From Granulicella sp. (GTDB taxonomy: Bacteria > Acidobacteriota > Terriglobia > Terriglobales > Acidobacteriaceae): a stretch of DNA of 64,000 nucleotides. The DNA lies in assembly GCA_035568455.1 (NCBI GenBank), contig DATMOB010000022.1, positions 4,733 to 68,732 on the forward strand. The letters run 5' to 3'. Both the position numbers and the translations under genes were made by a program. The stretch's first letter is position 1. Each line of letters opens with the position of its first letter. The notes under the pieces were generated by a model. That model was given only the letters and a program-made list of their open reading frames with translations. It was not told where the DNA came from and ran no database searches. Shown piece after piece: positions 8,908 through 27,665 of the stretch.

Positions 8908-11900
8908 GATACCTCTTTCCTCTCGATGCGGGGCGGCCGGCGTTCGGTGGGGGTGCGTTCGGTGCCGTTCCTGGTTGTCTGACCGGAGGCGCGCGCCCCG
9001 CGGAGATCACAGGTGAGGCTGATGGTGGTTCCCTGGCCGGGTTCGCTGCGGATGTGGAGCTGGGCTCCGATGTCGGCGGCGCGCTCTTCCATGCCTTTCA
9101 GGCCGAAGTGGCCGGTGGCGACCAGGCCGCCGGGCGCTGGGGTGAAGCCGGTGCCATCATCGTCGATCTGCAGGCGGAGGCGTTCGGTGTCGTAGCTGAG
9201 GGTGACCACGATCTGCCGGGCGCCGGAGTGGCGAATGGAGTTGGTGACCGCCTCCTGGGCGATGCGCAGGAACTCGTTCTCGATGCGGGGTGCGAGGCTG
9301 CGGAAGGCGCCGCGCACGTCGAGCCGGATGGCCGGGCCGTCGGCGTGGCGGCGGGTCTCGATGGCGCTGGCGATGCGCAGCGGGAGGGTGTCGGGCTCGG
9401 TGCCGTTGGCGGAGAGCGGAGAGCGCAGGTTCCAGATGGAGCTGCGCGCCTCGGTGAGCGAGGAGCGGACCAGCTGCTGGGTGATCTCGAGCTGACTGGC
9501 GGCGGCTTCGGGAGAGGTCTTGAGCAGGCGGGAGGTGACCTCGAGCTGCACTGAGACGCCGACGTAGCCCTGGGCGAGGGTGTCGTGAATCTCGCGGGCG
9601 ATGCGGCTGCGCTCGTGCAGCACGGCCTGGTACTGCGCCGCGAGGAAGCGCAGGCGGGAGCGGTAGACCAGATAGCCGAGGCCGAGAAGGGCGACGGCGA
9701 TGAGGAGAAGAAACCAGCTCGTCTGATAGAGGTGGGGTTCGAGGGTGAGCGGAAGCGCAGCGGGGGCGAGGCTCCACACGCCGTCGTTGTTCGCCGCGGA
9801 GACCAGAAAGCGGTAGCTGCCGGGCGGGAGGTTGGTGTAGTAGGCGGTGCGGCGGGTGCCGGCGTCGATCCAGTCGTGGTCGAAGCCCTCGAGCTTATAG
9901 CGGAAGTGGACCTTCTGCGGGGCAGCGAAGCTGAGGCCGGCGTAGTGGAGGGTGAGGCGCTCGGTGCCGGGGGGGAGGGTGAGGCTGCCGCCGGGATGAT
10001 CGTCGCCGCTGGAATGGCCGGTGGCGTCGTCGTCGTTTGTGTCGCCGTTGCCGGCAATCTTCTGGCTAATGCTGTCGATTCTGTCGCCGCTGGAATCGAT
10101 CTTCTCGCTGTTGTTTTCGACCTTCTCGCCATTGCCGTCGATCAGGACCTGTTCGATGGCGGTGAGCGGGGGCACGGGATTGTCGAATCCGGAGCCGGGT
10201 TTGACCTTGGCGACGCCTTTGAGGGTGCTGAACCAGAGGCTGCCATCCTGCGAGCGCCAGGCGGCGGGATGACCGCCGCTGCTGCACTCGGAGATCCTCA
10301 TGCCGTCGGCGATGCCGAAGACGGCGGTGGGAAGCGACGCGGTCTGTTGGTCGGCGAGGGCGTTGAGTGCGGCGATGCCGACCCGGTAGATGCCGCGGCT
10401 GGAGCCGAGCCAGAGGTTCGGAGAGGGTGCGCTGGACCCCTGGCTGGAGTCTTCAAGGATGCTGAAGATCTCCTGCGGAAGATTGCCCTCGGTCGGGTGA
10501 ATGGCGGTGAAGACGCCGTTGCGCAGGCGGGTGAGGCCGGCGGCGTGAGCGGCGATCCAGAGCGTGCCCTGGGAGTCTTCGTGGAGCGTGGTGATGGCGT
10601 CGCCAGCGAGGCCGCCGGGCGCCTGCGGGCTGTGAGTGTAGTTGTGGAAGCCGCGGCCGTCGAAGCTGCTGAGGCCGCCGAGCGTGCCGACCCAGAGCGT
10701 TCCGGAGCGGCTGCGGAGAATGGCGCCGATGACGTCGGAACCTAGGCCGTCCAGCCGGGAGTAGGTGGTAAAGGCTCCTCCGGAGTAGTGGGCGAGGCCG
10801 TTGCGGGTGCCGACCCAGAGCGAGCCGTCGCGATCGGTGTAGAGGGAGCGAACGAAGTCGTCGGGCAGGCCGTCGGCGCTGGTGAGCAGGGTGAGGTTGC
10901 CGTCGTGCAGGCGGCTGAGGCCGTCGGGGGTGCCGATCCAGAGATCGGGATGGCCGGTGGCGGCGGCGGTCTCCGCCAGGGCGAGGACGACGTGGCCGGC
11001 GAGGCTCGGGAGCGAGGAGACACTGCCGTCGCGCAGCCTGTTCAGGCCGCGGTTGGTGCCGATCCAGAGCGTGCCGGCGTGGTCCTGGAAGACGGCGCGG
11101 ACGAAGTCTCCAGAGAGTCCATCGGTGGAGGTGAGGGTGGAGAAGGCCTGTTCGCGCAGGACGGTGAGGCCGCCGGTGTCGGTGCCGAACCACATGTCAC
11201 CCTCGCGGTCTTCGACGACGGAGAGGACGCCGGGAAGGGGGATGGGGGATTGCAGGATCTCTCGGGCGCTGGCTGCGGCCGCGGCGGTGGTGCTCGCGGA
11301 GGTGAGCCGGGCGAGGCCGAGCTCATAGGCGATCCAGAGCGCGCCGGAGCGGTCCTGAAAAAGCTGCAGGACGCGGCCGGAGGTGATGGCGTGGCTGCTG
11401 GGCTGGGCGGCTGCGGGGACAGCTCGCAGCGTCCCGTTGCTGTACTGGGCGAGGCCGGCTGCGGTGCCGATCCAAAGCGTGCCGTTGGGCTCAAGCGCGA
11501 GCGCGGTGATGTTGGCCGAGGGAGTGGGGTGCAGGATCAGGAGCTTGCGGTTGTAGCTGAGCAGGGCGAGGCCGTCGTGGCCGCCGACCCAGAGCTCGCC
11601 CTGGGCGGTGGCGGCGATGGTTTGGAGGGAGCCGATGCCGGCGGGAATCTTCGTGTCGGAGAAGGCGGGGGTGAGGGCGGTGGCGCTGGCGGCGAGGGAG
11701 AGGATCTGGCGGCCGTTGGCGATCCAGAGGGCGCCGTTGGGGCCCTCGGTGACCAGAGCAGGGGAGAGCTCGGCGGTGAGCCCGGGGAGCGGCTGCAGGC
11801 GGCCGGAGAGCAGCAGTGCGGCGCCGCCGGAGGTGAGTACGAGCAGGCCGCCGCCGCGTCTGCGCAGCGTCTGGACGTTGTTCGAGGGCAGGCCGTCGGC

Positions 11901-12323
11901 GGTGGTGTAGCGGGTGAAGCGGGGGTGCAGGGGATCGGCCGTGAGCGCGAGCAGGCCGTCGCTGGTGGCGACCCAGAGCACGCCGCGGTCGTCCTCGGCG
12001 AGGTCGCTGATGAGGTTGCTGTGCAGCTGGGGGAGGTTGGTGGTGTCAAAGGTGAGGAGGTCCTGGCCGTCGAAGCGGACGAGGCCGCCCTCGGTGGCGA
12101 TCCAGAGGAAGCCGTCGCGTGTCTGGAGGACGGCGTGGACGGTGTTCTGCGGCAGGCCGGATTCGGTCTGCCAGGTCTGGCGGCCGTACTCGCGGAGCGG
12201 TTTGGCGGCGGTGAGCGCACGGGCTCTTCCACAACTCGGTGCCGCGAGGATGGTGAGGACGGCAATGAGGAAGAGGCGGAATGGAGAAGAGCTGCGCGTC
12301 ACGGCAGGTGGTCCGAGTTTCAC
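8904..12323 (-). CDS. Sensor histidine kinase with two-component regulator propeller repeats, Y_Y_Y, HisKA_3 and HATPase domains
   Basis: Repeated (D)GxLWIGT units, YTNLPPGSYRFLV, a TM helix, ERSRIAREIHDTLAQG, RIAQEAVTNSIRHS, DDGTGF and GHFGLKGM. Confidence 0.93.
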   Translation of the reverse strand: MKLGPPAVTRSSSPFRLFLIAVLTILAAPSCGRARALTAAKPLREYGRQTWQTESGLPQNTVHAVLQTRDGFLWIATEGGLVRFDGQDLLTFDTTNLPQLHSNLISDLAEDDRGVLWVATSDGLLALTADPLHPRFTRYTTADGLPSNNVQTLRRRGGGLLVLTSGGAALLLSGRLQPLPGLTAELSPALVTEGPNGALWIANGRQILSLAASATALTPAFSDTKIPAGIGSLQTIAATAQGELWVGGHDGLALLSYNRKLLILHPTPSANITALALEPNGTLWIGTAAGLAQYSNGTLRAVPAAAQPSSHAITSGRVLQLFQDRSGALWIAYELGLARLTSASTTAAAAASAREILQSPIPLPGVLSVVEDREGDMWFGTDTGGLTVLREQAFSTLTSTDGLSGDFVRAVFQDHAGTLWIGTNRGLNRLRDGSVSSLPSLAGHVVLALAETAAATGHPDLWIGTPDGLSRLHDGNLTLLTSADGLPDDFVRSLYTDRDGSLWVGTRNGLAHYSGGAFTTYSRLDGLGSDVIGAILRSRSGTLWVGTLGGLSSFDGRGFHNYTHSPQAPGGLAGDAITTLHEDSQGTLWIAAHAAGLTRLRNGVFTAIHPTEGNLPQEIFSILEDSSQGSSAPSPNLWLGSSRGIYRVGIAALNALADQQTASLPTAVFGIADGMRISECSSGGHPAAWRSQDGSLWFSTLKGVAKVKPGSGFDNPVPPLTAIEQVLIDGNGEKVENNSEKIDSSGDRIDSISQKIAGNGDTNDDDATGHSSGDDHPGGSLTLPPGTERLTLHYAGLSFAAPQKVHFRYKLEGFDHDWIDAGTRRTAYYTNLPPGSYRFLVSAANNDGVWSLAPAALPLTLEPHLYQTSWFLLLIAVALLGLGYLVYRSRLRFLAAQYQAVLHERSRIAREIHDTLAQGYVGVSVQLEVTSRLLKTSPEAAASQLEITQQLVRSSLTEARSSIWNLRSPLSANGTEPDTLPLRIASAIETRRHADGPAIRLDVRGAFRSLAPRIENEFLRIAQEAVTNSIRHSGARQIVVTLSYDTERLRLQIDDDGTGFTPAPGGLVATGHFGLKGMEERAADIGAQLHIRSEPGQGTTISLTCDLRGARASGQTTRNGTERTPTERRPPRIERKEVS

Positions 12324-12559
12324 TTCAGTTCGAGAATTCTATGCTTTATGGATTGTCAAGGATGGTACAGGAAGTGGAGTGGCAGAGGGAAGGCAGAAAG
12401 GCGCTTCGCACCGGAGGGTGATGCGAGGTCCGGGGCCGGTGGGCTCCTCCGAGGAGAATGGCGCAACTGCGCGAGAGGAGGCAGAGACGAATAGAGGCCT
12501 CTCCACTGCGCGGCGGACGGGATGACGTCTTCTATTGCTTGCCTTGCGTTGGGGAACTG

Positions 12560-13036
12560 CTATTTGGAGGAGCCGCCGTAGACGGCGGGTTCGCCCAGGC
12601 TGCCGGCCTTGGGCAGGTGGCGGATGTAGAGCACCATGTGCCAGATCTCGCGCTCGGAAAAGTCGCCCTTCGAGGGCGGCATGCCGGAGGGCGAGATGCC
12701 GTTCTCGATGATCCACTTGAGCTGGCCGTCGGTGTAGGACTGGACCTCGGCGCTGGCGAGTGAGGGCACGGGCGGGGAGACGGTGGCGGCGAAGGGGACG
12801 CCGGTGTTCTGGCCGTCGAGGCCGTGGCACACCATGCAGTAGGAGGTGAAGAGCTGCTTGCCGTCGTCGATGTTGTCGGCGGCGGGCGGCTCGGGATTGA
12901 TGTCTTTCTTGCCGCCGATGGTGACGTGGTGCTTGGTCCACGAGATGGCTTTGGTCTCGGTGGGGGAGGGTGGCGTGGAGCGACAGCCGGACAGGAGAGT
13001 GACGGCGAGCAGAAGTAGAAATGCGGTGATCTTCAT
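12560..13036 (-). CDS. Monohaem c-type cytochrome (lipoprotein)
   Basis: Lipobox LLSGC, CMVCH haem motif and distal GMP; start at ATG 13036. Confidence 0.88.
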   Translation of the reverse strand: MKITAFLLLLAVTLLSGCRSTPPSPTETKAISWTKHHVTIGGKKDINPEPPAADNIDDGKQLFTSYCMVCHGLDGQNTGVPFAATVSPPVPSLASAEVQSYTDGQLKWIIENGISPSGMPPSKGDFSEREIWHMVLYIRHLPKAGSLGEPAVYGGSSK

Positions 13037-13253
13037 GGATTGGTAATCGGGGGTCGCTACGAGCAAAAGGACAGAGGTAACGGTAAAGGCGAATACAGGG
13101 GCCTCTCCACTCCAGTGCGAGACTGCCCGCTGCTTCGGTCGAGCTGATGTGCTTGTTGCTCGAACTGGTCGTGTCAGAGCGCTGATCGTTAGAGTGCTTG
13201 TCCCCCATCCTATCGCAGCGAGCTTGCGCTCAGATGGGGGACTTGAGGTGGGG

Positions 13254-14732
13254 TCAGGCGATGATGTCGTGAATGACGTTGCCGGCGACGTCGGTGAGGC
13301 GGAAGTCGCGGCCGCTCGAGCGGAAGGTGAGTTTGGTGTGGTCGATGCCCATCAGATAGAGAATGGTGGCGTGGATGTCGTGGACGTGGGCCGGCTTGTC
13401 GACGACCTTCCAGCCGAAGTCATCGGTGGCGCCGTAGGTGATGCCGCCCTTGATGCCGCCGCCGGCGAGCCACATGCTGAAGCCGTGCGGGTTGTGGTCG
13501 CGACCGGCGTGGGTGCCGGCACCGCCGAGTTCGACCACCGGGGTTCGGCCGAACTCCGAGCCGCAGACGATGATGGTCTCGTCGAGCAGGCCGCGCGCCT
13601 TGAGGTCCTTGATCAGTGCGGCGAAGGGCTGATCGGAGTCCTTGGCGTTCTTGCGATGGGCCTGGATGTCCTGGTGCGCGTCCCAGGGATCGCCCTGGGA
13701 GTAGTAGACCTGCACCATGCGCACGCCCTTCTCGATGAGGCGGGCGGCGGTGAGGCAGCCGCGGGCGGTTGAGCCCTCGCCGTACATCTTGATGGTGGCC
13801 TCGGTCTCCTTGCGCACGTCGAAGACGTCGGGCGCCTCGGTCTGCATGCGGTAGGCGGTCTCCATGGAGCCGATGGTGGCCTCGAGCTGAGGATCTGCCG
13901 GGGCGTCGCCGTAGGTCTCGGCCTCGTTGAGCGCGTCGAGCTTCTTGATCAGGTCCAGCTCCTTGCGCTGCTGCTGGATGTCGAAGCGATCGTTGTGAAT
14001 GTTGGGGATCAGCTTGTAGGGGTCGAAGTCCTTTTGTTTGGTGTCGGTGGTGACGTAGGTGGCCTGGTTCACCGCAGGCAGGAAGCCGGCGCTCCAAAGC
14101 GGCGGCCCGACGGTGGTCGGCACCTGCGGGCAGAGCACGACGAAGCCGGGAAGATTTTTGTTCTCTGTGCCGAGGCCGTAGGTGAGCCATGAGCCCATGG
14201 AGGGCCGGCCGATGATGTTGGCGCCGGTGTTCATCATGATGAGGGCGGGCTCGTGGTTGGGGATCTCCGTGTAGACGGAGCGGACAACGCAGATGTCGTC
14301 GGCGCAGGCGCCCACGTTGGGGAAGAGCTCGGAGACCTCGAGGCCGCTCGAGCCGTAGCGTTTGAACTCGAAGGGCGACTTCATCAGGGTGCCGGTCTTG
14401 CGCTCGTGGCCGAGGTCGCCGCCGGGCATCGGCTGGCCGTGGTATTTGGTCAGCATCGGTTTGTTGTCGAAGCTGTCGATGTGCGAGAGGCCGCCGTTCA
14501 TGAACAGGAAGATGACGTGCTTGGCCTTGGGCTTGAAGTTGGGATCCTTGATCATCCAGGGATTGGTCGCGGCGGTGGTGGCTGCGACCGAGCCTGGGTT
14601 GGCGGCGTCGAGGGCCTCGGCCTGGGCGAGCGACTCGCCGATCATGCTGGCGAAGCTCATCATGGCGAAGCCGCCGCCGATCTTGCGCAGGGCGTCGCGG
14701 CGAGTGACGGGTTTCGGCTTTTGACAGGGCAT
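13254..14732 (-). CDS. DUF1501 family Tat-exported protein
   Basis: Tat motif TRRDAL; KAKHVIFLFMNGGLSHIDSFD, RPSMGSWLTYGLG, SEFGRTP, GRDHNP, LAGGGIKGG and RLTDV are typical of DUF1501. Confidence 0.9.
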   Translation of the reverse strand: MPCQKPKPVTRRDALRKIGGGFAMMSFASMIGESLAQAEALDAANPGSVAATTAATNPWMIKDPNFKPKAKHVIFLFMNGGLSHIDSFDNKPMLTKYHGQPMPGGDLGHERKTGTLMKSPFEFKRYGSSGLEVSELFPNVGACADDICVVRSVYTEIPNHEPALIMMNTGANIIGRPSMGSWLTYGLGTENKNLPGFVVLCPQVPTTVGPPLWSAGFLPAVNQATYVTTDTKQKDFDPYKLIPNIHNDRFDIQQQRKELDLIKKLDALNEAETYGDAPADPQLEATIGSMETAYRMQTEAPDVFDVRKETEATIKMYGEGSTARGCLTAARLIEKGVRMVQVYYSQGDPWDAHQDIQAHRKNAKDSDQPFAALIKDLKARGLLDETIIVCGSEFGRTPVVELGGAGTHAGRDHNPHGFSMWLAGGGIKGGITYGATDDFGWKVVDKPAHVHDIHATILYLMGIDHTKLTFRSSGRDFRLTDVAGNVIHDIIA

Positions 14733-14777
14733 GGGCGGATCTCCTGTGGGCGCGATGTACTTAGTTCAAAAAACGGC

Positions 14778-17700
14778 TTAGTTCAGAAACTCGAATTCGT
14801 TGGAGCTGAAGAGGACACGAGCATACTGCTTCCAGGCGGTGAGCGGCTCCTGGTTGACCAGGTAGCCGGGCTTCTCCGGGGTGTTCTTGAGGAAGTCGAG
14901 GCCGGCCTGCAGCTCGGCCGGAGTGGGCACGCGGCCGAAGAGCAGGCGGTAGGCCTCGGTGATGCGGGCGGTGTCGTCGCCCTTGGGGTAGACGCGCGCG
15001 GCGAACTCGCCGGCCTGCTTGTAGACGAAGGAGTTGTTCATGAAGTAAAGCCGCTGCACCGGCACGTTGGTGGAGAAGCGCTGCTCGGCGGTGAAGGTCG
15101 GATTCGGAAAGTCGAAGGCCTGCAAGAACGAGTCGATGCGGAAGCGGCTGACCTTGGCATAGACCGTGCGGCGGTCGTTGTCGAGGCCGAGCTCCTTGGC
15201 CGGGCCGCCGGCATCTTTGGTGTTGAGATCGCCGGCGACGAAGAGCATGGAGTCGCGCAGCTGCTCGGCGTCGAGCCGCTGCAGCGAGAAGTGGGAGTAG
15301 TAGCGGTTGAGGGGATCCTTGACGTGCGCGTCGGCGGTCTCCTTGCTGCTCTGCTGGTAGACCGCGGAGAGCATGATCCTGCGCTGCAGCTGCTTGAGCG
15401 ACATGCCATCCTTCTCGAAGCGGACGGCAAGGTAGTCGAGCAGCTCGGGGTTCGAGGGCGGATCGCCGACCGCGCCGAAGTTGTCGGCGGTGTTGACGAT
15501 GCCGGTGCCGAAGTGCCACTTCCAGACGCGGTTAACCAGGACCCGGCTGGCCAGCGGGCTGGCGACGATGTCGTTGGCCAGCTCGAGCCGGCCGCTGCCC
15601 TGGGTGTAGGGCTTCTTGTCGGGTGCGCCGAGCACGGTGAGGAAGCCGCGAGGGATCATGTCGCCGTGGGCGTGCGGGTTGCCGCGCAGGTCGAGTGCGA
15701 TGTTGACCGCCTGGGGCTTGTCCGCCAGGCCGTGGACGAAGGGATAGATCTCGTCGACCTTCTTGACGTTCGAGCCGCCGCTCTGCAGGGCGGTGAGGTA
15801 GGCCTGTTCGGCGGGGCCGAGGCGGCGGACCAGCTCCCAGCCGCGGAAGACGAAGAGGCCGGGCAGGCCGCGCTCCTCGAAGATGCCGGTGCCCAGCTGG
15901 CGCACGAAGAGATCCTCGTAGAGGTTGGCCTTCTCCGGGGCGATGACCTTGAGCTCGAGCGTGCAGCCGGGGCAGAACTGGTCGTAGGTGTCGAAGTCGG
16001 AGGGCTTGACATCCTTGGCGCGCTCGGTGGGGACGCCGGCCTTGGCTTTGATCTTCTCGTTCTCGTCGTCGACGGCCTTCTCTTCGACCTCAAGGTCGAG
16101 GATGCGCTGCTGGAAGGAACTGGCGAGGAATTTGGCCTGATCCTCGGTGCCGCCCTGGGCGATCATGAGCTGCCAGTCCTTCAGGTAGGGATAGAAGAGC
16201 GGCTTCTTGGCGAGGAAGGCGATCCAGCGATCGAGCAGCTCGGGATCGAGACGGTCTTTATCCGCGGCCTCGTCCACCTTCATCTTGGGCTTGCCGGCGA
16301 CCCTCCAGGCCGCGACCATGTAGGCGGAGGACTGGGCGGCGAGCGCCTTGGCCAGCTGCTGGGCGGCGGTCTTGGTGTACTCCTGGGCGGCCTCATCCTT
16401 GTCGTTGGCCTGCTTGAAGCGCTGACGCCAGAACTCGACCTCGGAGTCGGGGACGAAGTTGTACTCCTTGTAGGTGGAGCTGGCGAAGACGCCGCCGAGC
16501 GCGTAGTAGTCCTTGGCCAGGATGGGATCGTACTTGTGATCGTGGCAGCGGGCGCAGGCAACGGTCAGGCCGAGGAAGCCGCGGGTGACGGCGTCGATGC
16601 GCTCGTTGCGCTCGTCGGCGCGGCCCTGGATGGGCTCGGCCTGATCCCAGATCCAAGGTGCTCCGCCGAGGAAGCCGGTCCCCTTAAGATCGTCGGCGGT
16701 GGGGTTCTTGCTCAGCAGGTCGCCGGCGAGCTGCATCTTCACGAACTTGTCGTAGGGGACGTCGTCGTTGATCTGTTTGATGACCCAGTCGCGGTAGACC
16801 CAGGCGCCGTCGAGCGGCATGTAGCCGCGGCCGCGGGGATCGAGGCCGCGGATGTCGTCGTCGCCGTAGCGGGCGACGTCGAGCCAGTGCCGGCCCCAGC
16901 GCTCGCCGTAGGCCGGGGAGGCGATCAGGCGGTCGACCACCTTGGCGAAGGCGTCGGGCGAGGGGTCCTTCTCGAAGGCTGCAATCTCCTCGGGCGTGGG
17001 CGGCAGGCCGGTCAGATCGAGCGTCGCCCGGCGGATCAGGGTGCGCTTGTCGGCCATGGGAGCGGGCGTCAGGCCCTTCTCGGCGAGGTTGGCCAGGACA
17101 AAGCGGTCGATGTCGGTTTTTGCCCAGGACTTCGAGGCAGGGTCCTTGAGGACGGGGACGGCGGGGTCCTGAAGCGGAACGAAGGACCACCACTTGCGCA
17201 TGTCGGGCGTGATCTGTTTGCCGGTGCGGACAGGGGTGGTGCTCTGCGGCCAGGGCGCGCCCATGCGGACCCAGTCGGAGAGCGCCTGGATCTCGTCGGC
17301 GGAGAGCTTGGCTCCCTTGGGGGGCATCTTGAGGTCGCCGGTCTGGTGGACAGCGGTGAGCAGAAGGCTCTTTTCGGGGTCGCCGGGCACGATGGCGGGG
17401 CCGGAGTCGCCGCCCTTGAGGATGGAGGCGCGGGAGGTGAGGCTGAGGCCGCCCTTGGCGGCGTCCTGGTGGCAGCTGCCGCAGGAGTTGGCGAAGATGG
17501 GGCGGATCTTGTTCTCGAAGTAGTCGTCGCCGGGCGTACCTTTGGCCTGGGCGGAGGTGAGCAGCGCGACCACCGGCTGGGCAGCCTCTGCGCTATCCCA
17601 GGCAGCGCCGCGACGGACCCACTCGACTAGATTGGCGATGTCGCCGTCGGCGAGCTTCTCGCCCTTGGGGGGCATCTTGAGGTCGCCGGTCTGCTGGATG

Positions 17701-18071
17701 GCCTCGATGAGCAGGCTCTTCTCGGGCTTGCCGGGAACCACCACCGGGCCGGAATCGCCTCCCTTGAGCAGAGCGGCGTGGGAGTCGAGCCGGAGGCCGC
17801 CGGCGGCCTCGGTGGTATGGCAGCGGTAGCAGCTCTGGGCCAGGACGGGGCGAACCTTCTGGGTGAAGAACTGGGTGCTGTCCTCGGCCCCGGAGTCAGC
17901 TGCGGATGGGCTTGTGGCTGTGCTCCGCGCTGCGGCTGAACTGGAGGCGGCTGCGGTCGTCTTCTCCTGCGCAGAGGCCGTCGTGGAGTGGCTCTCGGTC
18001 GAAGCCACGGTGGCGAATGCGGCCAAAGCACAGAGGGCGAGAGTGCGGGCAGAGTTCGAGATAGGACTCAC
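14778..18071 (-). CDS. PSD1/planctomycete cytochrome C protein (two PSCyt1 domains, DUF1549, DUF1553)
   Basis: CxxCH motifs CYRCH, CGSCH and CARCH; LIRRATLDLTGLPPT, YGERWGRHWLD, RVLVNRVWKWHFGTG, RLDAEQLRDSML and RVLFSSNEF. The GTG start at 18071 overlaps the ATPase TGA and is followed by a signal peptide. Confidence 0.9.
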   Translation of the reverse strand: MSPISNSARTLALCALAAFATVASTESHSTTASAQEKTTAAASSSAAARSTATSPSAADSGAEDSTQFFTQKVRPVLAQSCYRCHTTEAAGGLRLDSHAALLKGGDSGPVVVPGKPEKSLLIEAIQQTGDLKMPPKGEKLADGDIANLVEWVRRGAAWDSAEAAQPVVALLTSAQAKGTPGDDYFENKIRPIFANSCGSCHQDAAKGGLSLTSRASILKGGDSGPAIVPGDPEKSLLLTAVHQTGDLKMPPKGAKLSADEIQALSDWVRMGAPWPQSTTPVRTGKQITPDMRKWWSFVPLQDPAVPVLKDPASKSWAKTDIDRFVLANLAEKGLTPAPMADKRTLIRRATLDLTGLPPTPEEIAAFEKDPSPDAFAKVVDRLIASPAYGERWGRHWLDVARYGDDDIRGLDPRGRGYMPLDGAWVYRDWVIKQINDDVPYDKFVKMQLAGDLLSKNPTADDLKGTGFLGGAPWIWDQAEPIQGRADERNERIDAVTRGFLGLTVACARCHDHKYDPILAKDYYALGGVFASSTYKEYNFVPDSEVEFWRQRFKQANDKDEAAQEYTKTAAQQLAKALAAQSSAYMVAAWRVAGKPKMKVDEAADKDRLDPELLDRWIAFLAKKPLFYPYLKDWQLMIAQGGTEDQAKFLASSFQQRILDLEVEEKAVDDENEKIKAKAGVPTERAKDVKPSDFDTYDQFCPGCTLELKVIAPEKANLYEDLFVRQLGTGIFEERGLPGLFVFRGWELVRRLGPAEQAYLTALQSGGSNVKKVDEIYPFVHGLADKPQAVNIALDLRGNPHAHGDMIPRGFLTVLGAPDKKPYTQGSGRLELANDIVASPLASRVLVNRVWKWHFGTGIVNTADNFGAVGDPPSNPELLDYLAVRFEKDGMSLKQLQRRIMLSAVYQQSSKETADAHVKDPLNRYYSHFSLQRLDAEQLRDSMLFVAGDLNTKDAGGPAKELGLDNDRRTVYAKVSRFRIDSFLQAFDFPNPTFTAEQRFSTNVPVQRLYFMNNSFVYKQAGEFAARVYPKGDDTARITEAYRLLFGRVPTPAELQAGLDFLKNTPEKPGYLVNQEPLTAWKQYARVLFSSNEFEFLN

Positions 18072-19099
18072 GGTGTCTCTCCGTCGTGTCGGTCTTGTCC
18101 GTCTTGTCTGTATTGGGGGCCCTGAGTCTCGTCGATTTCTGATGCGCGATCGCCGCGGGAGAAGTGCTCGATGTGGTCGACCAGGTTGAGAAACTCCTCG
18201 CCGTGGGTGCGCAGGCTCATGCCGCCTGCGGCCGGGTTGTTGTTGGGAAGCTTCAGATCGAGCGCGACGCGGGAGCCGCAGTGGTCCTCGCGGCCGGTGC
18301 GGGCGAGCACGATCACCCGGGTGCCGAGGAAGAGCGCCTCGGCGGTGTTGTGGGTGACGAAGACCACCGTCGGGCGGGTCTCGCTCCACACCGAGCGCAG
18401 CAGCCGCTGCAGGCTGGCGCGGGTGGCGGGATCGAGCGCACTGAATGCCTCGTCCATGAGCAGAACGCGGGACTGCATCATCAGCGCCTGGGCGATGGCC
18501 ACGCGCTGCTGCATGCCGCCGGAGAGCTGGTGTGGATACTTGTGCGCGTCGGAGGGCTCGAGTCCCATGTGGGCGAGCTGCCGGTAGGCCTCCTCGTGAA
18601 TGCGGCGGCGGAAGGCGCGGAAGCTCGGGCGCAGCCGGCCGAGGATGTGATACTTCGAGGTCTCGGGCCCCATGGCCAGGTTCTCGAGCACGGTGCGGTC
18701 GGGGAAGAGGGAGTACCGCTGCGGCACGTAGCCGGAGCGGGCATCGACGCGTTCGACGGGCGATCCGGCGACGTGAATCTGACCGGAGGTCGGGCGCTCC
18801 TGGCCGAGGATCATGCGCAGCAGCGTGCTCTTGCCGCAGCCGGTCTCGCCGAGCAGGACGACGAACTCGCCCGGCTCGATGTCGAGCGAGATGTCTTCGA
18901 GCACGGTGCGTCGGGCGTTCTTCTTACCGCCGCGGGCGCTCTTCAGTGCGTAGGAGACGACTACATTCTGGATGCGGATGGCGGCGGCGCCTTCTGGCTG
19001 GACGTGGGGATTCGCCCCCGCGACCTCGACCCTGGGATTGGTCTCCGGGAGGTCCTCATTGGGGCTCTTCAACTCGGGCGCGCTCAAGCCTGAAACCAT
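18068..19099 (-). CDS. ABC transporter ATP-binding protein (TauB/SsuB-like)
   Basis: GETGCGKS Walker A, LSGGMQQR signature and LLMDEAF Walker B. Confidence 0.93.
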   Translation of the reverse strand: MVSGLSAPELKSPNEDLPETNPRVEVAGANPHVQPEGAAAIRIQNVVVSYALKSARGGKKNARRTVLEDISLDIEPGEFVVLLGETGCGKSTLLRMILGQERPTSGQIHVAGSPVERVDARSGYVPQRYSLFPDRTVLENLAMGPETSKYHILGRLRPSFRAFRRRIHEEAYRQLAHMGLEPSDAHKYPHQLSGGMQQRVAIAQALMMQSRVLLMDEAFSALDPATRASLQRLLRSVWSETRPTVVFVTHNTAEALFLGTRVIVLARTGREDHCGSRVALDLKLPNNNPAAGGMSLRTHGEEFLNLVDHIEHFSRGDRASEIDETQGPQYRQDGQDRHDGETP

Positions 19100-19947
19100 G
19101 GATGTAACCTCCTATTGAGAACACGCAGCGACCAGTCGATAAGGAAGAGCAGCAGGGCCACCCAGAGCACGTAAGGCAGAATGACGTCCATGCCCATGTG
19201 GCGGCGCATGATGGCGATGCGGTAGGCCAGACCATCCGAGGCGGCGATCATCTCGCCGGCGAACAGAAACAGCATCATGGGCTTCAGATTCAGCCTCAGG
19301 CTGTTGATGACCTGCGGGAGGATCTGGCGGAAGACGACGCGATAGGCGACGTCGAAGTTGTTGGCGTCGAGCGTGAAGGCCTTGACGATCTGCTCCTCGG
19401 GGACGGCCTTCACCATCTGGGTGACGTCGAGGATCATGGTGGGAGCGACACCGATGACGATCAGCGCGATCTTCGACCACTCCTCGATGCCGAAGACGAT
19501 GAACAGAATCGGAAGCAGAGAGAGCGCGATGATCTTGTCGAAGAAGAGCACGAAGCGCAGGAAGCCGGCGCCGAACCAGGGGAAGAGGCCGATGTGCAGC
19601 GCGAGGATCACAGCCGGAACCAGAAGGCAGAGGCTGATGAGGAAGCGGCGCCCGCTCGAGGCGGTGTCCTTCCAGATCATGGAGTGGTGCAGCCGCTCCC
19701 AGGTGCTGGCGTCCTCGGCGGGGATGTAGTCGTCCTCCTCGGCGGGCTCAAGCACGGCGGAGCGAATGCCGGCGGCGAGCTGGCGGGCGTTGGGGACGAC
19801 GCGGTCCTCAGGATTCTCGCGATGACGGCTGATCGAGGTCTGCGTGTACAGGCCGATGCAGACGACGAAGAGCAGGCAGGAGAGCGCCTGGGCGAACAGC
19901 CGGTTCGGCCGCGTTTGAATGTCGAAGGGATTCGCTAGATTCGCCAT
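19084..19947 (-). CDS. ABC transporter permease of the urea-carboxylase-associated type
   Basis: Multiple TM helices; lies between the SBP and ATPase; C-terminal GEMIAASDGLAYRI...RRHMGMDVILPYVLW. Confidence 0.9.
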   Translation of the reverse strand: MANLANPFDIQTRPNRLFAQALSCLLFVVCIGLYTQTSISRHRENPEDRVVPNARQLAAGIRSAVLEPAEEDDYIPAEDASTWERLHHSMIWKDTASSGRRFLISLCLLVPAVILALHIGLFPWFGAGFLRFVLFFDKIIALSLLPILFIVFGIEEWSKIALIVIGVAPTMILDVTQMVKAVPEEQIVKAFTLDANNFDVAYRVVFRQILPQVINSLRLNLKPMMLFLFAGEMIAASDGLAYRIAIMRRHMGMDVILPYVLWVALLLFLIDWSLRVLNRRLHPWFQA

Positions 19948-19953
19948 GGCGAG

Positions 19954-21048
19954 TTAGAGCTTCCCCTGTTGGGCAGCCTGCATATAGGCTGCGTTGAAGC
20001 GCAGACGGACGCGATCCTTCTTTCCCTGGACGGCGCCGTTGGGATAGGCGATGGCTACGTCGTCGACCGACTTGACGCCCTGTCCGAGCAGGCCGTGGGC
20101 GAAGCAGAACTGGCGGACCAGGTCCATCTTCTGCTCGAGACCCGGGCTGGTGGCGAAGTCGGCAGCGGCCTTGGGGGTGCTGAACAGGGCGGTGGTCTTG
20201 AGCTGCTCCTGATAGGAGGCGACCGTATCGCCGGAGGCGGCGGCCGAGTACTTGATGGCGTTGGCCTGGCCGGCGGCGAGCTGCGCGACCGTCTCGTACC
20301 AGGCACCGGTGATGGCCTTGGCGAACTTCTGGCCGTCGGGGCGGTTGAGAACCTCGGTGCGCACCACCAGAAGGTCCAGAATCTCGCCGGGGATCTTGGA
20401 CGAGTCGAAGATGGAGTGGACGCTCTTGTCGGTGGCGATCTGCGAGACCAGCGGCTTCCAGGTGACGACCGCCTGGTTGGACTTGTTGTTGAGGAAGGCG
20501 GCGGCGATGTCGGAGTCCGAGGTGTTGATCAGGTGCAGCTTGGCCAACTGGGACTGCTGGCCGTTCAGCACCATGCCGCGTTCCAGCAGATACTCGGATA
20601 CGGTCTTCTCGACCAGCATGACGGGCTTGCCGGGCAGCGTGGAGAAGTTGAGGCCGTTGCGCACCAGCACGGCGTCGTTGCCGTTGGAGTAGTCGCCGAC
20701 GATGATGGCGGTGGAGTCGACGCCGGCGGCGGCGGGCATGTCGAGCGCCTCCATATTGGTCATGGTGCAGGCGTCGATGTTCTTGGCGACGAAGGAGTCG
20801 AGCGAGGCGGCGTAATCGAAACGCTGCACCTTGATCGCGATGCCGTACTTGTCCGCCCACTTCTTCAGAATGCCGGACTTCTGCATGTAGAAGTAGGGGT
20901 TCCAACCGGCGTACACCGACCAGCCGACAGTGAAGGTCGGGACATCGGCCCGCGCCGCGGCAGGGGAGATCGTCCCCAGGACGAGAAGGAGCAGAAAAGA
21001 CACACAGACTGCGGGGCTCAAACGGGACTTCTTGGATCTCATGGGCAC
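19954..21048 (-). CDS. ABC substrate-binding protein of the urea-carboxylase-region family
   Basis: Signal peptide; WSVYAGWNPY, CTMTNMEAL, GDYSNGNDA, LINTSDSD and SKIPGEILDL match the SBP family usually found beside uca. Confidence 0.88.
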   Translation of the reverse strand: MPMRSKKSRLSPAVCVSFLLLLVLGTISPAAARADVPTFTVGWSVYAGWNPYFYMQKSGILKKWADKYGIAIKVQRFDYAASLDSFVAKNIDACTMTNMEALDMPAAAGVDSTAIIVGDYSNGNDAVLVRNGLNFSTLPGKPVMLVEKTVSEYLLERGMVLNGQQSQLAKLHLINTSDSDIAAAFLNNKSNQAVVTWKPLVSQIATDKSVHSIFDSSKIPGEILDLLVVRTEVLNRPDGQKFAKAITGAWYETVAQLAAGQANAIKYSAAASGDTVASYQEQLKTTALFSTPKAAADFATSPGLEQKMDLVRQFCFAHGLLGQGVKSVDDVAIAYPNGAVQGKKDRVRLRFNAAYMQAAQQGKL

Positions 21049-21197
21049 CTAAAAGTTCAACAGCGGGTGATGGTCAATCTCTTTCAGGGTCGTCTGAATG
21101 GATTGTTGGGAGAGTGCTCGGCTACCGGAGTGAGTGGCTCGAGTTTAGACTGGAGCCGTTCCGGAGCGATGTCGTATAGCGGTGTCCAATCGGGTTT

Positions 21198-21252
21198 ATA
21201 GAGAATGCCTATGGAAAAGGATTTGTCTATCGGGAGAATAGAAAAATTCAAT
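21198..21252. promoter_or_regulatory. Three LysR-type ATAG-N7-CTAT boxes in the divergent intergenic region
   Basis: ATAGAGAATGCCTAT (21198-21212), AAAGGATTTGTCTAT (21216-21230) and ATAGAAAAATTCAAT (21238-21252). Confidence 0.55.
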
Positions 21253-21418
21253 GGCAAGCTCGGAAGAGGAGTTTTTTTGTTCTAGTAGGAGCTGCACCGT
21301 TCCTCCAGGCTTTCTCTCTCTTCAACCGACTCAAGCGATCGCGCTGAGCATCGCCGGGCGCGCTCGCCTTGGCGATCACCGCCAACATCACTCGGAGCGC
21401 CAGGCTCGCAGGGAAATC

Positions 21419-22477
21419 ATGTCTTCTTGGATCGACGATTGCAGGCGGTATACGGGTTGGGTACGGGCTGGTGCAGTCCTCGCGACGGCCGCCTTGGTTC
21501 TGGCAGGGTTCGCAGACGCGCAGCAGCAGGCTGCCGCTCCGGCAACGCCCGAGGCTACCCGCGTTCGGCCGCCCCGGGTGGTGAAGCCCGGGGTGAAGAC
21601 GCCGGGCGTGCAGCGTCCCTTGAGCGAACTGCATCCGCAGGTGGTGTTTCCGGTGGCGGGCTCGCCGGACTGGTCGGTGATGACCAAGGACGCGGTCTGG
21701 ATCACCAGTGCGCGCGCAAACCAGGTGGTGCAGCTGCTGCCGGCGACGGGCAAACCGGGCCTGATGGTAGACATTCCGCGTCCCTGCTCGGGGCTGGCCT
21801 ATGGCTGGGGCTCGGTGTGGGTGCCGAGCTGCGGGTCGCACAAGCTGCTGCGTTTGGATGAGTCGACGGGCAAGGTGACAGCGGAGATTCCGGCCGATCC
21901 GGCGAACTCCGAGGGCGGGATCGCGGTCGGTGCGGGCTCGGTGTGGCTGGTGGCAAAGCCGAGCACGCTGCTGCGTATTGACCCCGAGAAAAATGCCGTG
22001 GTCGCGAGCCTGGAGCTGCCTTCCGAGTCGGAGAACCCAGCCTTCGGCGATGGATATATCTGGGTGTCGTCCTTCGGACATGGACAGCTCTTGAAGGTCG
22101 ACCCGAAGAGCAATCGCGTAGTCGACAGCATTGCCGTGGGGCCGCAGCCGCGCTTCCTCACGGTCGGTGCGGGCGCGGTGTGGACGTTGAACCAGGGCGA
22201 TGGCACGATCTCGCGGGTCGACATGAAGACCGATAAGCTGGTGGCGACCATTGTGTGCGGCATCCCGGGCACGGGCGGCGATATCACCTTCGGCGCTGGC
22301 TCTGTGTGGGCTACGCTGTATGACTTTCCCCTGACCCAGGTCGACGCCAAGACGAACCTGCCGGTGAAGCAGTGGGCGGGCAAGGGCGGGGATGGATTGC
22401 GCTTCGGATTCGGATCATTGTGGCTTTCGAACGGCGGCCAGCAGAACGTCTGGCGTATTTCACCGGAACAGAAATAA
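21419..22477 (+). CDS. Secreted beta-propeller protein (Vgb lyase/YVTN-like)
   Basis: Signal peptide and repeated GxGSVW/GxGAVW blades; first gene of the uca operon. Start placed at ATG 21419. Confidence 0.8.
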   Translation: MSSWIDDCRRYTGWVRAGAVLATAALVLAGFADAQQQAAAPATPEATRVRPPRVVKPGVKTPGVQRPLSELHPQVVFPVAGSPDWSVMTKDAVWITSARANQVVQLLPATGKPGLMVDIPRPCSGLAYGWGSVWVPSCGSHKLLRLDESTGKVTAEIPADPANSEGGIAVGAGSVWLVAKPSTLLRIDPEKNAVVASLELPSESENPAFGDGYIWVSSFGHGQLLKVDPKSNRVVDSIAVGPQPRFLTVGAGAVWTLNQGDGTISRVDMKTDKLVATIVCGIPGTGGDITFGAGSVWATLYDFPLTQVDAKTNLPVKQWAGKGGDGLRFGFGSLWLSNGGQQNVWRISPEQK

Positions 22478-22528
22478 GCTGTACCGTCTTTGGGCCAGTA
22501 GAACAGCCGGCAATCGTGCCGGGGAAGG

Positions 22529-23266
22529 TTGGATCGGTTGAGTTCTGAAGGAGTGGGATCTGAAGTGTTGTGGAAGGAGACGCTGCAGGGAGCGTCGACG
22601 TGGTCGCATGTCTTGAAGCGGGGAACCGCGCTGCGCATTACCGCCGGTGGCGAGCACGCCAACGTGGGTGCGCTGTTTCTGAACGCCGACAATCCCTCGG
22701 AGCGGCTGAACCTGCCGGATACGTTGAAGGCGCAGCATATCGCGCGGCTGACGACAGGGGCAGTGCTCTACTCGGATATGGGCCGGATCCTGTGCTCGAT
22801 CACCGACGACACGCTGGGCTGGCATGATCCGCTCGGCGGCTGCTCGGACGCGGTCATGGTGGCGGCCAAATACGGTGTGCTCAGCTACCAGCAGGCGCAC
22901 AACCACTGGCATCAGAATGCGCTCGACGGCTTCCTGATTGAGTTGGAGAAGCACGGTCTGAGTGGCCGCGATCTGATGATGAATGTGAACTTCTTCAGCA
23001 AGGTCGAGGTGGGCGGGGACGGCGGCATGCGTTTTGTTCCCGGCCACGCGCAGGCAGCAAGCGCGGTCGAGCTGCGCGCGGAGATGAACACGCTGGTGAT
23101 CCTCAACACCTGCCAGCACCCCATGGACCCCGATCCCGAGTACCGGCAGGTTCCGGTGGAGTTGACCGTGAAGCGTGTGCCTGCGCCCGGGCCGGAGGAT
23201 CTCTGCCGCCGGTTTCGGCCCGAGAACGAGCGCGGGTTTACCTTGACCGAGCGCTACTTCCTGTAA
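22529..23266 (+). CDS. cgdA: Urea carboxylase-associated protein (DUF1989), carboxyguanidine deiminase subunit A
   Basis: [58 protein letters not shown]; upstream of uca. Confidence 0.85.
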
Positions 23267-23312
23267 ACCGCAGCCATCCCTCTTTGAGCCATTCCATCAG
23301 GAGTCATTTTCG

Positions 23313-23987
23313 ATGCCAGAAGCAGTATTAGTCGAGAGCCCGCGCGTTGCGGAGAAGGCGATCTTCTCGGCCGACGTCCTCGCCGGCGACTCGTTCGTGC
23401 ACGAGGTCAAGCGCGGTCAGTTCATCCGCGTCGTCGATCTCGAAGGCAACCAGGCCGTCGACACGCTGTTCTACAACGCCAACGACTACACCGACCGCTA
23501 CAGCGCGCAGGACACGATTCGCACGCAGGCGAATATCTACCTGACCACCGGGACGAAGCTCATCTCGACGGGGCGGAATCTGCTGCTGACGATCGTGGCC
23601 GATACCTGCGGCCGCCATGACACGCTGGGTGGCGCCTGTGCGACCGAAAGCAACATGGTGCGCTATGCGATCGAAAAGCGGCATATGCATGCCTGCCGGC
23701 AGAGCTTTCTCCAGGGCGCGCTGGCGTGGTCGCGGCAGACCGGGAGCGAGTTGGGTAAGCGGGATCTGACGGCGAATATCAACTTCTTCATGAATGTTCC
23801 GGTAACCCCGGCGGGCGGGCTGACCTTTGAGGACGGCGTCTCCGATGCAGGCAAGTATGTGGAGCTGCGGGCGGAGATGGATGTGCTCATCGTGATCTCG
23901 AACTGCCCACAGTTGAATAATCCGTGCAACGCCTATAACCCGACGCCGGTGCGAGTACTGGTGTGGAACGCGGAAGAGATCGGCTAA
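23313..23987 (+). CDS. cgdB: Urea carboxylase-associated protein (DUF1989), carboxyguanidine deiminase subunit B
   Basis: [43 protein letters not shown] and [18 protein letters not shown]. Confidence 0.88.
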
Positions 23988-23997
23988 AAGGAGCTTG

Positions 23998-26900
23998 ATG
24001 TTTAAGAAGGTATTGATTGCGAATCGCGGGGCCATTGCGTGCCGGATTGAACGCACGCTGAAGAGGATGGGGATCGGTTCGGTCGCGGTGTACTCGGCGG
24101 CGGACGCGAACTCGCTGCATGTATTTGAAGCCGATGAGGCAGTGGCGATCGGGCCGGCTCCGGCGGCGCAGAGCTATCTTTCATTCGACGCGATCTTCGC
24201 GGCGGCGGAGCAGAGCGGTGCGGAGGCGATCCATCCCGGATACGGCTTCCTCAGCGAGAATGTAACCTTTGCGCGAGCATGTGCCGAGCGCGGCATTCGC
24301 TTCATCGGACCGCATCCGGAGCACATCGAGGCCTTCGCGCTGAAGCATACGGCGCGCGAGACCGCCAAGCGCTGCGGCGTTCCGCTGCTTCCCGGCACCG
24401 GTCTGCTGAGCGATCGCGACGACGCGCTGCGGCAGGCGGAGACGCTGCGCTACCCGGTGATGCTGAAGAGCTCGGGCGGCGGCGGCGGCATCGGCATGCG
24501 GGTCTGCGCCTCTGCGGCAGAGCTGACCGAGGCGTACGAGTCGGTGCTGCGCCTGAGCAAGGCGAACTTCGGCGACTCCGGCGTGTATCTCGAAAGGTAT
24601 GTCGCGCAGGCGCGGCACATCGAGGTGCAGATCTTCGGCGACGGCAAGGGCGGCGTGATTGCGCTCGGCGAGCGGGACTGCTCGGCGCAGCGGCGCCACC
24701 AGAAGGTGCTCGAAGAGACGCCTGCGCCAGGGCTGACGGAGCCCACACGGCGGCATTTATATGATGCGGCGATCCTGTTGGGCAAGGCGGTACACTATGC
24801 CTCCGCGGGCACAGTGGAGTTTATCTACGACGATGCCACGGGAGAGTTCTACTTCCTCGAGGTCAACACCCGCCTGCAGGTAGAGCATGGCATCACCGAG
24901 CAGGTCACCGGCGTCGATCTCGTGGAGTGGATGGTGCTCGAGGCCTCGGGCGACCTGGCGCCGCTCGACTCATTTGCGATCACGCCCAGGGGCGCTTCGA
25001 TCGAGGCGCGTGTGTATGCGGAGGACCCGGCGCAGCAGTTCCAGCCCTCTCCCGGCAAGCTGTCGCTGGTTCGCTTCCCGGAGCCGGAGCTGGCGCGGGT
25101 AGAGACCTGGATCGAGTCCGGCGCGACGGTTACGCCGTTCTACGATCCGATGATCGCGAAGATTATTGTGACTGGAAAGGATCGTGCCGAAGCGCTGGCA
25201 AAGCTCGATGCAGCGCTGGCTGCGAGCGCCATCGATGGAACCGAGACCAATCTGCGCTATCTGCGCAAGGTTGCGGCCACTCCGGAGTTTGTGTCGGGTA
25301 AGGTTACAACCTCATTTTTGGGCAAGTTTGCGTTTGCTCGCAACGCGGTCGAGGTGCTCGAAGGCGGAACGCAGACGACGATTCAAGACTATCCCGGACG
25401 CACGGGGTACTGGCACATCGGCGTTCCACCCTCGGGGCCGATGGACCATCTCTCCTTCCGCATCGCCAACCGCCTGGTCGGCAACGACGAAGGCGCGGCG
25501 GCCATCGAGTTTGCCACGATGGGCGGTCGGCTCCGCTTCCATGCGGACACGACGATCGCGCTGACCGGCGCCGACATGGGGGCGAAGCTCAACGGCAAGC
25601 CTGTGGCTCGCTGGACGGCGATCGCGGTGAAGGCCGGCAGCGTGCTCTCGCTGGGCGCCGCGTCGAAGGAAGGCATTCGCGCCTACCTGGCGCTGCGAGG
25701 AGGCGTCGATTCGCAGCCCTATCTGGGCAGCCGCAGCACCTTCATGCTGGGCGGATTTGGCGGCGTCTCGGGACGGGCGCTGCGCGCGGGCGATGTACTG
25801 CATCTGCTCGACGCAGACGCGTCTGCATTGCCGAAGCCGGCGGCGCTGCCAGCGAAGTTCGTGCCCGAACTCACGCGGGCGTGGGAGATCGGGGTGCTCT
25901 TCGGGCCGCATACGGCGCCGGACTTCTTCACCGAAGAAGACATCCAGATGCTCTTCGCGACCCACTGGAAGGTGCACTACCAGAGCGACCGCACCGGCGT
26001 TCGTCTGGTGGGTCCGAAGCCAAAGTGGGCGCGGTCGGATGGCGGCGAGGCGGGCTTGCATCCCTCGAACATCCACGACAACGCCTATGCCATCGGAACC
26101 ATCGACTTCACTGGCGACATGCCGATCCTGCTCGGACCCGACGGACCCAGCCTGGGCGGGTTCGTCTGTCCCGCAACGATCGTACAGGCGGAGCTGTGGA
26201 AGCTTGGCCAGTTGAAGGCTGGCGACACAGTGCACTTCCAGCGCGTGACGCTGGCTGAGGCCGAGGCGATGGAGCGCGCACAGGACAGCTTCCTCGAGAG
26301 CTTCCGGACTGCGCCAGCCGCGCTTCCCGTTTCATCAAAGCCAGAGCCTGCAGTGATTGCTGCCTTCACGGACCGGCCGCAGAAGATGGTCTTTCGCGCC
26401 GATGGAGACAAGTACCTTCTGGTCGAGTACGGCGAACTGGAGCTGGACCTCTATCTTCGCTTCCGCGTGCATGTGCTCGAGCAGAAGCTGCGCGCCGAGC
26501 AACTGGTTGGGATCATCGACATCACTCCGGGCATCCGTTCGTTACATATTCATTACGACAGTCGCGTGCTCGCGCGGGCGAAGCTCATCGATCTGCTCGA
26601 TGAGATCGACCGCACGATGCCGGAGCTGACCGACATCACCGTGCCCTCGCGCATCGTGTATCTGCCGCTCTCCTGGGACGATCCGCAGGCCAAGCTGGCG
26701 CAGCAGAAGTACATGCAGGCAGTGCGGCCGGATGCGCCGTGGTGCCCGTCGAACATCGAGTTCATCCGCCGCATTAATGGGCTGAATTCGATCGACGACG
26801 TGTACCGCATCGTGCACGAGGCGAGCTACCTGGTGCTAGGTCTCGGCGACGTCTACCTGGGCGCACCGGTGGCTACGCCGGTCGACCCCAGGCACCGGCT

Positions 26901-27597: not shown

Positions 27598-27665
27598 ATC
27601 CGGACTGGGCGAACAAAGCAGCTCCTTGCGCTAGCGGAAGGACGGCAGGACCTCTGAGGAGAGCA

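Follow-up and report, generated by a model that had tools for sequence, protein, structure and literature searches.

We analyzed a 64,000-nt stretch of DNA (here, the window; all coordinates and strands are positions in it) from a Granulicella-like soil acidobacterium, in which the genes of an ATP-binding cassette (ABC) importer lead directly into a pair of genes for exported PSD1 and DUF1501 proteins. We conclude that these genes, from that of the substrate-binding protein (SBP) of the importer to that of the DUF1501 protein, probably constitute one operon within an extended guanidine-acquisition locus, the exported module of which would act before or together with guanidine import. What is established is the anatomy of the cluster, the conservation of the overlap that joins importer and module, the linkage of the two in phyletic distribution and in position, and the presence of the guanidine signature in the neighboring catabolic enzymes. 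The first-pass annotation had singled out the interval from 12560 to 21048 as the unit. That interval is real, and the locus is larger, extending to a beta-propeller gene and to genes for CgdAB, a carboxylase, an allophanate hydrolase, a glutathione peroxidase (GPx)-like protein, a LysR-family regulator and an outer-membrane barrel.

Six genes lie on the - strand in the order SBP, permease, ATPase, PSD1, DUF1501 and cytochrome c, and their coordinates were confirmed by reading the sequence. The first (19954-21048) encodes a periplasmic SBP of the guanidine/urea-carboxylase-associated (uca) type, with a signal peptide and a match of 455 bits to the equivalog model TIGR03427 (ABC_peri_uca), for which the cutoff is 333.9. 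The adjoining permease, of the NitT/TauT type (19084-19947), has the PF00528 domain, with TauC and SsuC as its top NCBIfam matches, both below cutoff, while the ATPase (18068-19099) has PF00005 (E value of 6.5e-36) and a poorly conserved C-terminal tail. The three thus have the composition that defines a uca-type importer, namely, a TIGR03427 SBP with adjoining PF00528 permease and PF00005 ATPase. The fourth gene (14778-18071) encodes an exported protein of 1097 aa with the architecture PSCyt1-PSCyt1-PSCyt2-PSD1 (two copies of Pfam PF07635, PF07583 and PF07587). PSCyt1, PSCyt2 (DUF1549) and PSD1 (DUF1553) domains are therefore all present, together with three CxxCH motifs, one per predicted heme, at residues 81, 197 and 506, which are invariant across 37 orthologs. 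The DUF1501 protein encoded next (13254-14732) is alkaline-phosphatase/sulfatase-like, matches PF07394 at 462 bits and carries the twin-arginine motif TRRDALRK of a twin-arginine translocation (Tat) signal; its gene adjoins that of PSD1, as is characteristic of a PSCyt/PSD1-DUF1501 module. The last gene (12560-13036) encodes a monoheme cytochrome c lipoprotein (PF13442 and PF00034; CMVCH motif).

From SBP to cytochrome c, the permease starts 6 nt after the SBP gene, the next two junctions are overlaps of 16 and 4 nt, and the last two are gaps of 45 and 217 nt, exactly as the first-pass annotation had described them, the 217-nt value being valid for the best start of cytochrome c, the ATG at 13036, which gives the protein its lipobox LLSGC. 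The signal peptide of PSD1, the twin-arginine motif of DUF1501 and the lipobox of cytochrome c mark all three proteins, by prediction, as exported. A genome-wide search found only one PSD1 gene and one DUF1501 gene in the 4-Mb genome, both in this cluster. The orthologs of DUF1501 are 71 to 93% identical, and their mean column identity of 79% indicates very strong purifying selection.

The importer and the exported module meet at the junction of the ATPase and PSD1 genes (18068-18082; - strand sequence GGAGAGACACCGTGAGTCC). Here, a GGAGAG motif (18082-18077) inside the ATPase gene is followed, after a 5-nt spacer, by the GTG start of PSD1 (18071-18069), which overlaps the TGA stop of the ATPase (18070-18068) in a GTGA at 18071-18068. 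Both elements of translational coupling, a stop/start overlap and a Shine-Dalgarno (SD) motif within the upstream gene, are found at this site. The overlap is as first reported, and the choice of the GTG gains from the upstream GGAGAG and from what follows it, since the GTG at 18071 opens MSPISNSARTLALCALAAFATVAST, a Sec-type signal peptide that the later in-frame starts checked would shorten. RNA folding found no mRNA structure that sequesters the PSD1 start (z = +0.64).

Taken singly, overlaps of 4 nt are frequent between bacterial genes. Conservation of the overlap in relatives, which the first-pass annotation had proposed as a check, was borne out: among 47 distinct related ATPase/PSD1 junctions, an NTGA overlap was present in 42 (26 ATGA, 14 GTGA and 2 TTGA), and 38 of these 42 had a GGAG-like SD motif 5 to 15 nt upstream. 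The C-terminal tail of the ATPase is otherwise variable, while the overlap and the SD-like motif persist across the Acidobacteriaceae. Their retention despite turnover of the start codon among ATG, GTG and TTG is more than chance and is what selection for coupling predicts. The comparison strongly supports translational coupling of importer and PSD1-DUF1501 into a single unit, in which the GTGA overlap and the SD motif in the ATPase tail would tie translation of PSD1 to termination on the ATPase gene. One metagenome-assembled genome of the same genus (locus L007) has an in-frame TAG in its ATPase gene (12200-12760 of that locus) at the position of a Trp codon of the window, and its PSD1 frame (12623-14551) ends after 642 aa; these disruptions may be either decay of the locus or an assembly error.

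Divergently from the importer, on the + strand, runs a set of genes that indicates the substrate. It is headed by a gene for a secreted YVTN-type beta-propeller (21419-22477; DUF6923 and TIGR02276 matches), followed by two DUF1989 proteins, UAAP1 (22529-23266) and UAAP2 (23313-23987), which score 318 bits against TIGR03425 and 326 bits against TIGR03424, in each case above cutoff, and thus have the makeup of the heteromeric carboxyguanidine deiminase CgdAB. The carboxylase that follows (23995-27597) matches TIGR02712 at 1807 bits (cutoff of 1304). When it was aligned to the urea carboxylase of Kluyveromyces lactis (3va7/5i8i), D704 fell on N1330 and D952 on D1584. Asp at K. lactis positions 1330 (guanidine specific) and 1584 is the signature that separates guanidine from urea carboxylases (PMC11410670), and the window carboxylase has it at both. 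An allophanate hydrolase with Amidase and AH_C domains (27600-29471, start approximate) comes next. The Asp signature and CgdAB identify the cytoplasmic enzymes as those of the guanidine carboxylase pathway (PMC12186494), and the presence of this pathway in the locus makes guanidine the most likely substrate of the uca importer. The uca-type label first given to the importer was correct with regard to TIGR03427; as a substrate theme, the locus has guanidine and not urea.

In order to see how far this association extends, we turned to other genomes. Among 61 close relatives, mostly of the same genus and the remainder of the same order, the PSD1 ortholog and the uca SBP had an identical distribution, limited to five genomes, and the four relatives among these five all had the gene order of the window. 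In a sample of 401 genomes across the phylum, the uca SBP was present in only 5; the uca importers of two genomes from elsewhere in the phylum (G337 and G340) had no PSD1 neighbor. A search for PSD1 orthologs, taking one genome per species, returned 80 loci (53 to 91% identity) from Granulicella, Edaphobacter, Silvibacterium, Terracidiphilus, Sulfotelmatobacter and Bryobacterales. Importer or guanidine-catabolic genes lay within the 7-kb flanks in 64 of the 80 loci, and the guanidine carboxylase, CgdAB and the allophanate hydrolase were found in the majority of these linked loci. Cultured carriers are Granulicella mallensis X5P3, G. aggregans M8UP14, G. rosea DSM 18704, G. paludicola DSM 22464 and Silvibacterium bohemicum S15. 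One 3.3-kb contig (L053), assigned to a bin named "uncultured Sphingomonas sp.," has a PSD1 gene whose product shares 75% identity with that of the window; the contig is most likely acidobacterial and mis-binned.

The linked loci fell into four gene orders. Type A (43 loci, Acidobacteriaceae) is the order of the window, with importer, PSD1, DUF1501 and cytochrome c following one another. In type B (10 loci, Bryobacteraceae), the propeller gene diverges from PSD1, which is followed by DUF1501 and a GPx-like gene, then by a convergent importer and by cgdAB with the carboxylase. In type C (5 loci, Sulfotelmatobacter-like), PSD1-DUF1501 has cgdAB and the carboxylase beside it and the flank lacks an importer, while type D (6 loci, Bryobacterales) has propeller, PSD1, DUF1501, barrel, GPx-like gene and importer on a single strand. 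One locus counted as type C (L067) is type A, giving corrected counts of 44 and 4. In a tree of DUF1501, the 76 orthologs from the 80 PSD1 loci formed one clade (Shimodaira-Hasegawa-like approximate likelihood ratio test [SH-aLRT] value of 99), within which the arrangements clustered and which was separate from the homologs of genomes without guanidine genes. Measured by this distribution, the association of the exported module with a guanidine-type importer is a selected one and not a chance adjacency.

Type D adds the strongest argument. A genome-wide search found no CgdB anywhere in the type D genomes. Directly after the importer ATPase, these loci encode instead an arginase-family protein, a CbiX-like protein and UreF, UreD, UreC and UreG (for instance, at 4284-11676 of L101 and 4032-11392 of L102). 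The arginase-family protein aligns over 358 residues (E value of 4.8e-151) with "Probable agmatinase 2" of PDB entries 7esr/7oi1, at ca. 70% identity as estimated by eye from the alignment; this is presumably Sll1077 of Synechocystis, a guanidinase. It has the motif GTGWPEPGG, in which agmatinases have a small residue at the position of the Trp. The Synechocystis enzyme has been shown to be a guanidinase (PMC8390497). The type D protein would thus be a guanidinase of the GdmH type, and the CbiX-like protein is possibly a nickel-handling accessory. The same module and importer are thus joined to two nonhomologous guanidine routes, of which guanidine would be the common denominator.

Other genes recur around the module as well. 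The beta-propeller is its core partner and adjoins PSD1-DUF1501 in most related loci, including those of genomes without guanidine genes. The window also encodes a secreted GPx-like protein of thioredoxin fold (29535-30257, -; PF00255), the gene for which lies next to the module or to the SBP gene in most related loci, in all four arrangements, and heads the importer operon in many Granulicella loci (e.g., L016, where at 3052-3798 it lies directly upstream of the SBP). A TonB-dependent-type outer-membrane barrel (32062-35832, +; Pfam CarboxypepD_reg and OMP_b-brl_4) has homologs beside the module in all four arrangement types, and a LysR-family regulator (30630-31529, +; HTH_1 and LysR_substrate domains) recurs in some of the related loci.

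Regarding the limits of the transcript, the claim of one unit that includes cytochrome c stood only in part. The importer and PSD1-DUF1501 hold together in the comparison described above, whereas membership of cytochrome c in the same transcript is doubtful given the 217-nt gap, a hairpin after the DUF1501 stop and the variable spacing in relatives, where the two genes are 30 to about 530 nt apart. The hairpin, predicted by RNA folding directly after the stop (13200-13242, -), is GC rich, has 11 bp and lacks a U tract; comparable but nonhomologous hairpins are present in several relatives, and that of the window may be the transcript end or a processing or stabilizing element. Cytochrome c is downstream in 31 of the 43 type A loci and absent from the other arrangements, and it is best regarded as an associated gene. 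A scan for terminator-like sites on the - strand found none convincing between the operon genes, a result that is uninformative for Acidobacteria. Likewise, a crude scan, not tuned to Acidobacteria, found no sigma-70-like promoter in 12000-22600, and matches to the sigma-54 pattern (TGGCAC-N5-TTGC) were at chance level, with the single intergenic one (21428-21443, two mismatches) no better than the rest. In the intergenic region between the divergent SBP and propeller genes, a pattern search found four ATAG-N7-CTAT-like boxes (21176-21252, strand not assigned), a candidate shared operator. The pattern has 11 matches in the window versus 4.7 expected, these four among them, and the boxes recur at the equivalent intergenic site in Granulicella-type loci. 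Just downstream of cytochrome c, a Reg_prop/Y_Y_Y/HisKA_3 histidine kinase and a LuxR-type response regulator (8239-12323, -) had been candidate members of the system; they were dropped, as they have no counterpart in any related locus, and are probably unrelated neighbors.

From these results, we infer co-transcription, coupling and, with most reserve, a periplasmic chemistry. The SBP, permease, ATPase, PSD1 and DUF1501 genes would be a single operon, and the locus as a whole would consist of two interleaved halves, the propeller being transcribed with CgdAB, the guanidine carboxylase and the allophanate hydrolase, and PSD1-DUF1501 with the importer, so that both halves would diverge from the one intergenic region with the repeated boxes. 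In the working model that we consider the most likely, a guanidino compound would enter across the outer membrane through the TonB-type barrel. In the periplasm, the triheme PSD1 protein, the Tat-exported DUF1501 protein, the propeller and the GPx-like protein would release free guanidine, with cytochrome c as the electron partner; the uca ABC system would then take up the guanidine, and the carboxylase pathway would convert it to ammonia. That the exported proteins free guanidine in this way from a larger guanidino compound is a tentative proposal. The heme domains and cytochrome c suggest a redox step, and the predicted fold of DUF1501 would suit a metal site that catalyzes hydrolysis or group transfer. 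All 50 listed Foldseek matches of its weak AlphaFold2 model, built from a shallow alignment, belong to the alkaline-phosphatase superfamily (template modeling score of only ca. 0.3) and are taken as no more than consistent with that superfamily; at the sequence level, the invariant residues S83 and D412-H413 fit its pattern.

Several observations weigh against this model. Sequence searches of the PDB found no relatives of PSD1 or DUF1501, the PSD1 model (predicted local distance difference test [pLDDT] of 73.7) had no structural neighbor there (best E value of 4.6), and the DUF1501 model is weak (pLDDT of 52), its fold giving no chemistry. We know of no obvious guanidine-releasing precedent in which an alkaline-phosphatase-type hydrolase is paired with hemes. 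Three genomes inside the linked clade (G461, G464 and G465) have propeller, PSD1 and DUF1501 without a recognizable uca importer, CgdB or guanidinase, as do several outgroup genomes from other acidobacterial families. The triad of these three genes is therefore the older core and the module is not strictly dependent on guanidine genes; its tie to guanidine is, as far as gene content indicates, lineage specific or incomplete. In Bryobacteraceae, PSD1-DUF1501 forms an operon of its own that converges on the importer, and the partnership therefore does not require co-transcription. In the lineage of the window, the importer genes sit between the propeller gene and PSD1, as does the GPx-like gene in many relatives, and the same interval is the site of the divergent promoter in other lineages. 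Finally, no guanidine riboswitch or other Rfam element was found in 12000-24200, either at the gathering threshold or at an E value of ≤5; the output was a distant tRNA alone at the gathering threshold, to which the permissive one added a chance-level HgcC match (E value of 1.3). Such control is typical but not obligatory for loci of the guanidine carboxylase pathway.

The triads that lack guanidine genes are also an argument for a different reading, in which PSD1-DUF1501, propeller and barrel form a general nitrogen- or nutrient-scavenging module for an unrelated substrate, merely co-regulated with the guanidine genes under nitrogen limitation. The genes that flank these triads, which encode an amidase, amidohydrolases, a peptidase and an FG-GAP protein, show no common theme; a Tat-signal amidase lies near the triad at 5247-6791 of L094 and two amidohydrolases at 13900-16799 of L096. 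The shared box cluster and the LysR gene would be compatible with such a regulon. We nevertheless think this unlikely, since the linked orthologs form a distinct clade, the linkage survives four rearrangements and, above all, it outlasts the swap to a nonhomologous guanidine route, which is hard to explain unless guanidine is the shared factor.

Inheritance without function accounts for less. On this explanation, adjacency and overlap would be remnants of one ancestral insertion, such as a genomic island, and the distribution within the genus is indeed patchy, a genome having either the entire block or none of it, while 4-nt overlaps are common by themselves. It is improbable in light of the repeated change of the start codon with overlap and SD motif retained, the persistence of the genes as neighbors across families, in four orders and at 53 to 60% PSD1 identity, and the very strong purifying selection on DUF1501. 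We give equally little credence to transcription of PSD1-DUF1501 mainly from a promoter of its own inside the ATPase gene, with an overlap that has no coupling role. PSD1 does have its own promoter in other lineages, divergent from the propeller gene, and with no mRNA structure hiding its start, independent initiation at the SD motif would be possible; on the other side stand the crude sigma-70 scan, which found no candidate, and the overlap kept at 42 of 47 junctions. A single, coupled operon from SBP to DUF1501 in a guanidine-acquisition locus is thus the explanation that we prefer.

The cytoplasmic part of the locus resembles the guanidine carboxylase operons of Pseudomonas syringae, Raoultella terrigena and Klebsiella michiganensis (PMC12186494, PMC11410670), with which it shares a TIGR03427-type importer, CgdAB, a biotin carboxylase with the Asp signature and an allophanate hydrolase. 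Unlike those operons, this locus has no guanidine riboswitch; its importer genes are followed by PSD1, DUF1501 and cytochrome c, its catabolic operon begins with the gene for a secreted propeller, and barrel, GPx-like and LysR genes are attached. An operon with extra genes is known from Vreelandella boliviensis, in which accessory methylguanidine-demethylation genes yield free guanidine (PMC12508155) and so widen the substrate range. The likeness is one of function and not of homology, as the V. boliviensis proteins are a cytoplasmic 2-oxoglutarate/Fe(II) dioxygenase and a lyase, unrelated to the exported heme and sulfatase-like proteins described here. Loci with GdmH guanidinase, urease and an ABC importer, as in Synechocystis (PMC8390497, PMC12186494), have their counterpart in the type D relatives, with a close GdmH homolog and urease genes; this route is absent from the window itself and serves as comparative evidence tying the module to guanidine.

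The module itself is known from Planctomycetes and Verrucomicrobia, where the function of PSCyt/PSD1-DUF1501 pairs is stated as unknown (PMC3542564, PMC5615132). The PSCyt1, PSCyt2 and PSD1 architecture, the adjoining DUF1501 with a Tat signal and the export signals are the same. The pairs of those phyla occur in tens to more than 100 copies, beside sulfatases and carbohydrate-binding domains and with no pathway context, in contrast to the single copy per genome seen here, set in a defined nitrogen pathway. For the chemistry, methylamine dehydrogenase and quinohemoprotein amine dehydrogenase, which combine exported heme c domains, a beta-propeller and a small cytochrome acceptor in the periplasmic release of nitrogen compounds, are a working analogy only, as we found no sequence or fold similarity to the window proteins. 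The first-pass annotation had not recognized the arrangement from any known system, and full-text searches of the literature returned no description of it: no paper joined PSCyt, PSD1 or DUF1501 domains with guanidine or urea carboxylase, and none joined Acidobacteria or Granulicella with either. What is new is therefore a guanidine-assimilation locus extended by an exported module, the module itself being known but uncharacterized.

Many species of the Acidobacteria and of the Planctomycetes-Verrucomicrobia-Chlamydiae group have tens to hundreds of PSCyt/PSD1 and DUF1501 proteins per genome (PMC3542564, PMC5615132). A single-copy pair in a defined pathway, together with cultured carriers, turns what has been an annotation problem into one of growth experiments, knockouts and enzyme assays, and the recurrence of the partnership across the phylum provides a first testable job for this large orphan pair. 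Acidobacteria of peat, tundra and lichen habitats thus have a locus for guanidine assimilation that lacks a riboswitch, and the finding bears on the source of environmental guanidine, which is an open question (PMC12186494). If the proposed release of guanidine is true, one of the largest orphan protein families of Planctomycetes, Verrucomicrobia and Acidobacteria would have its first biochemical function, and the guanidine that so many bacteria sense and degrade would have a natural source.

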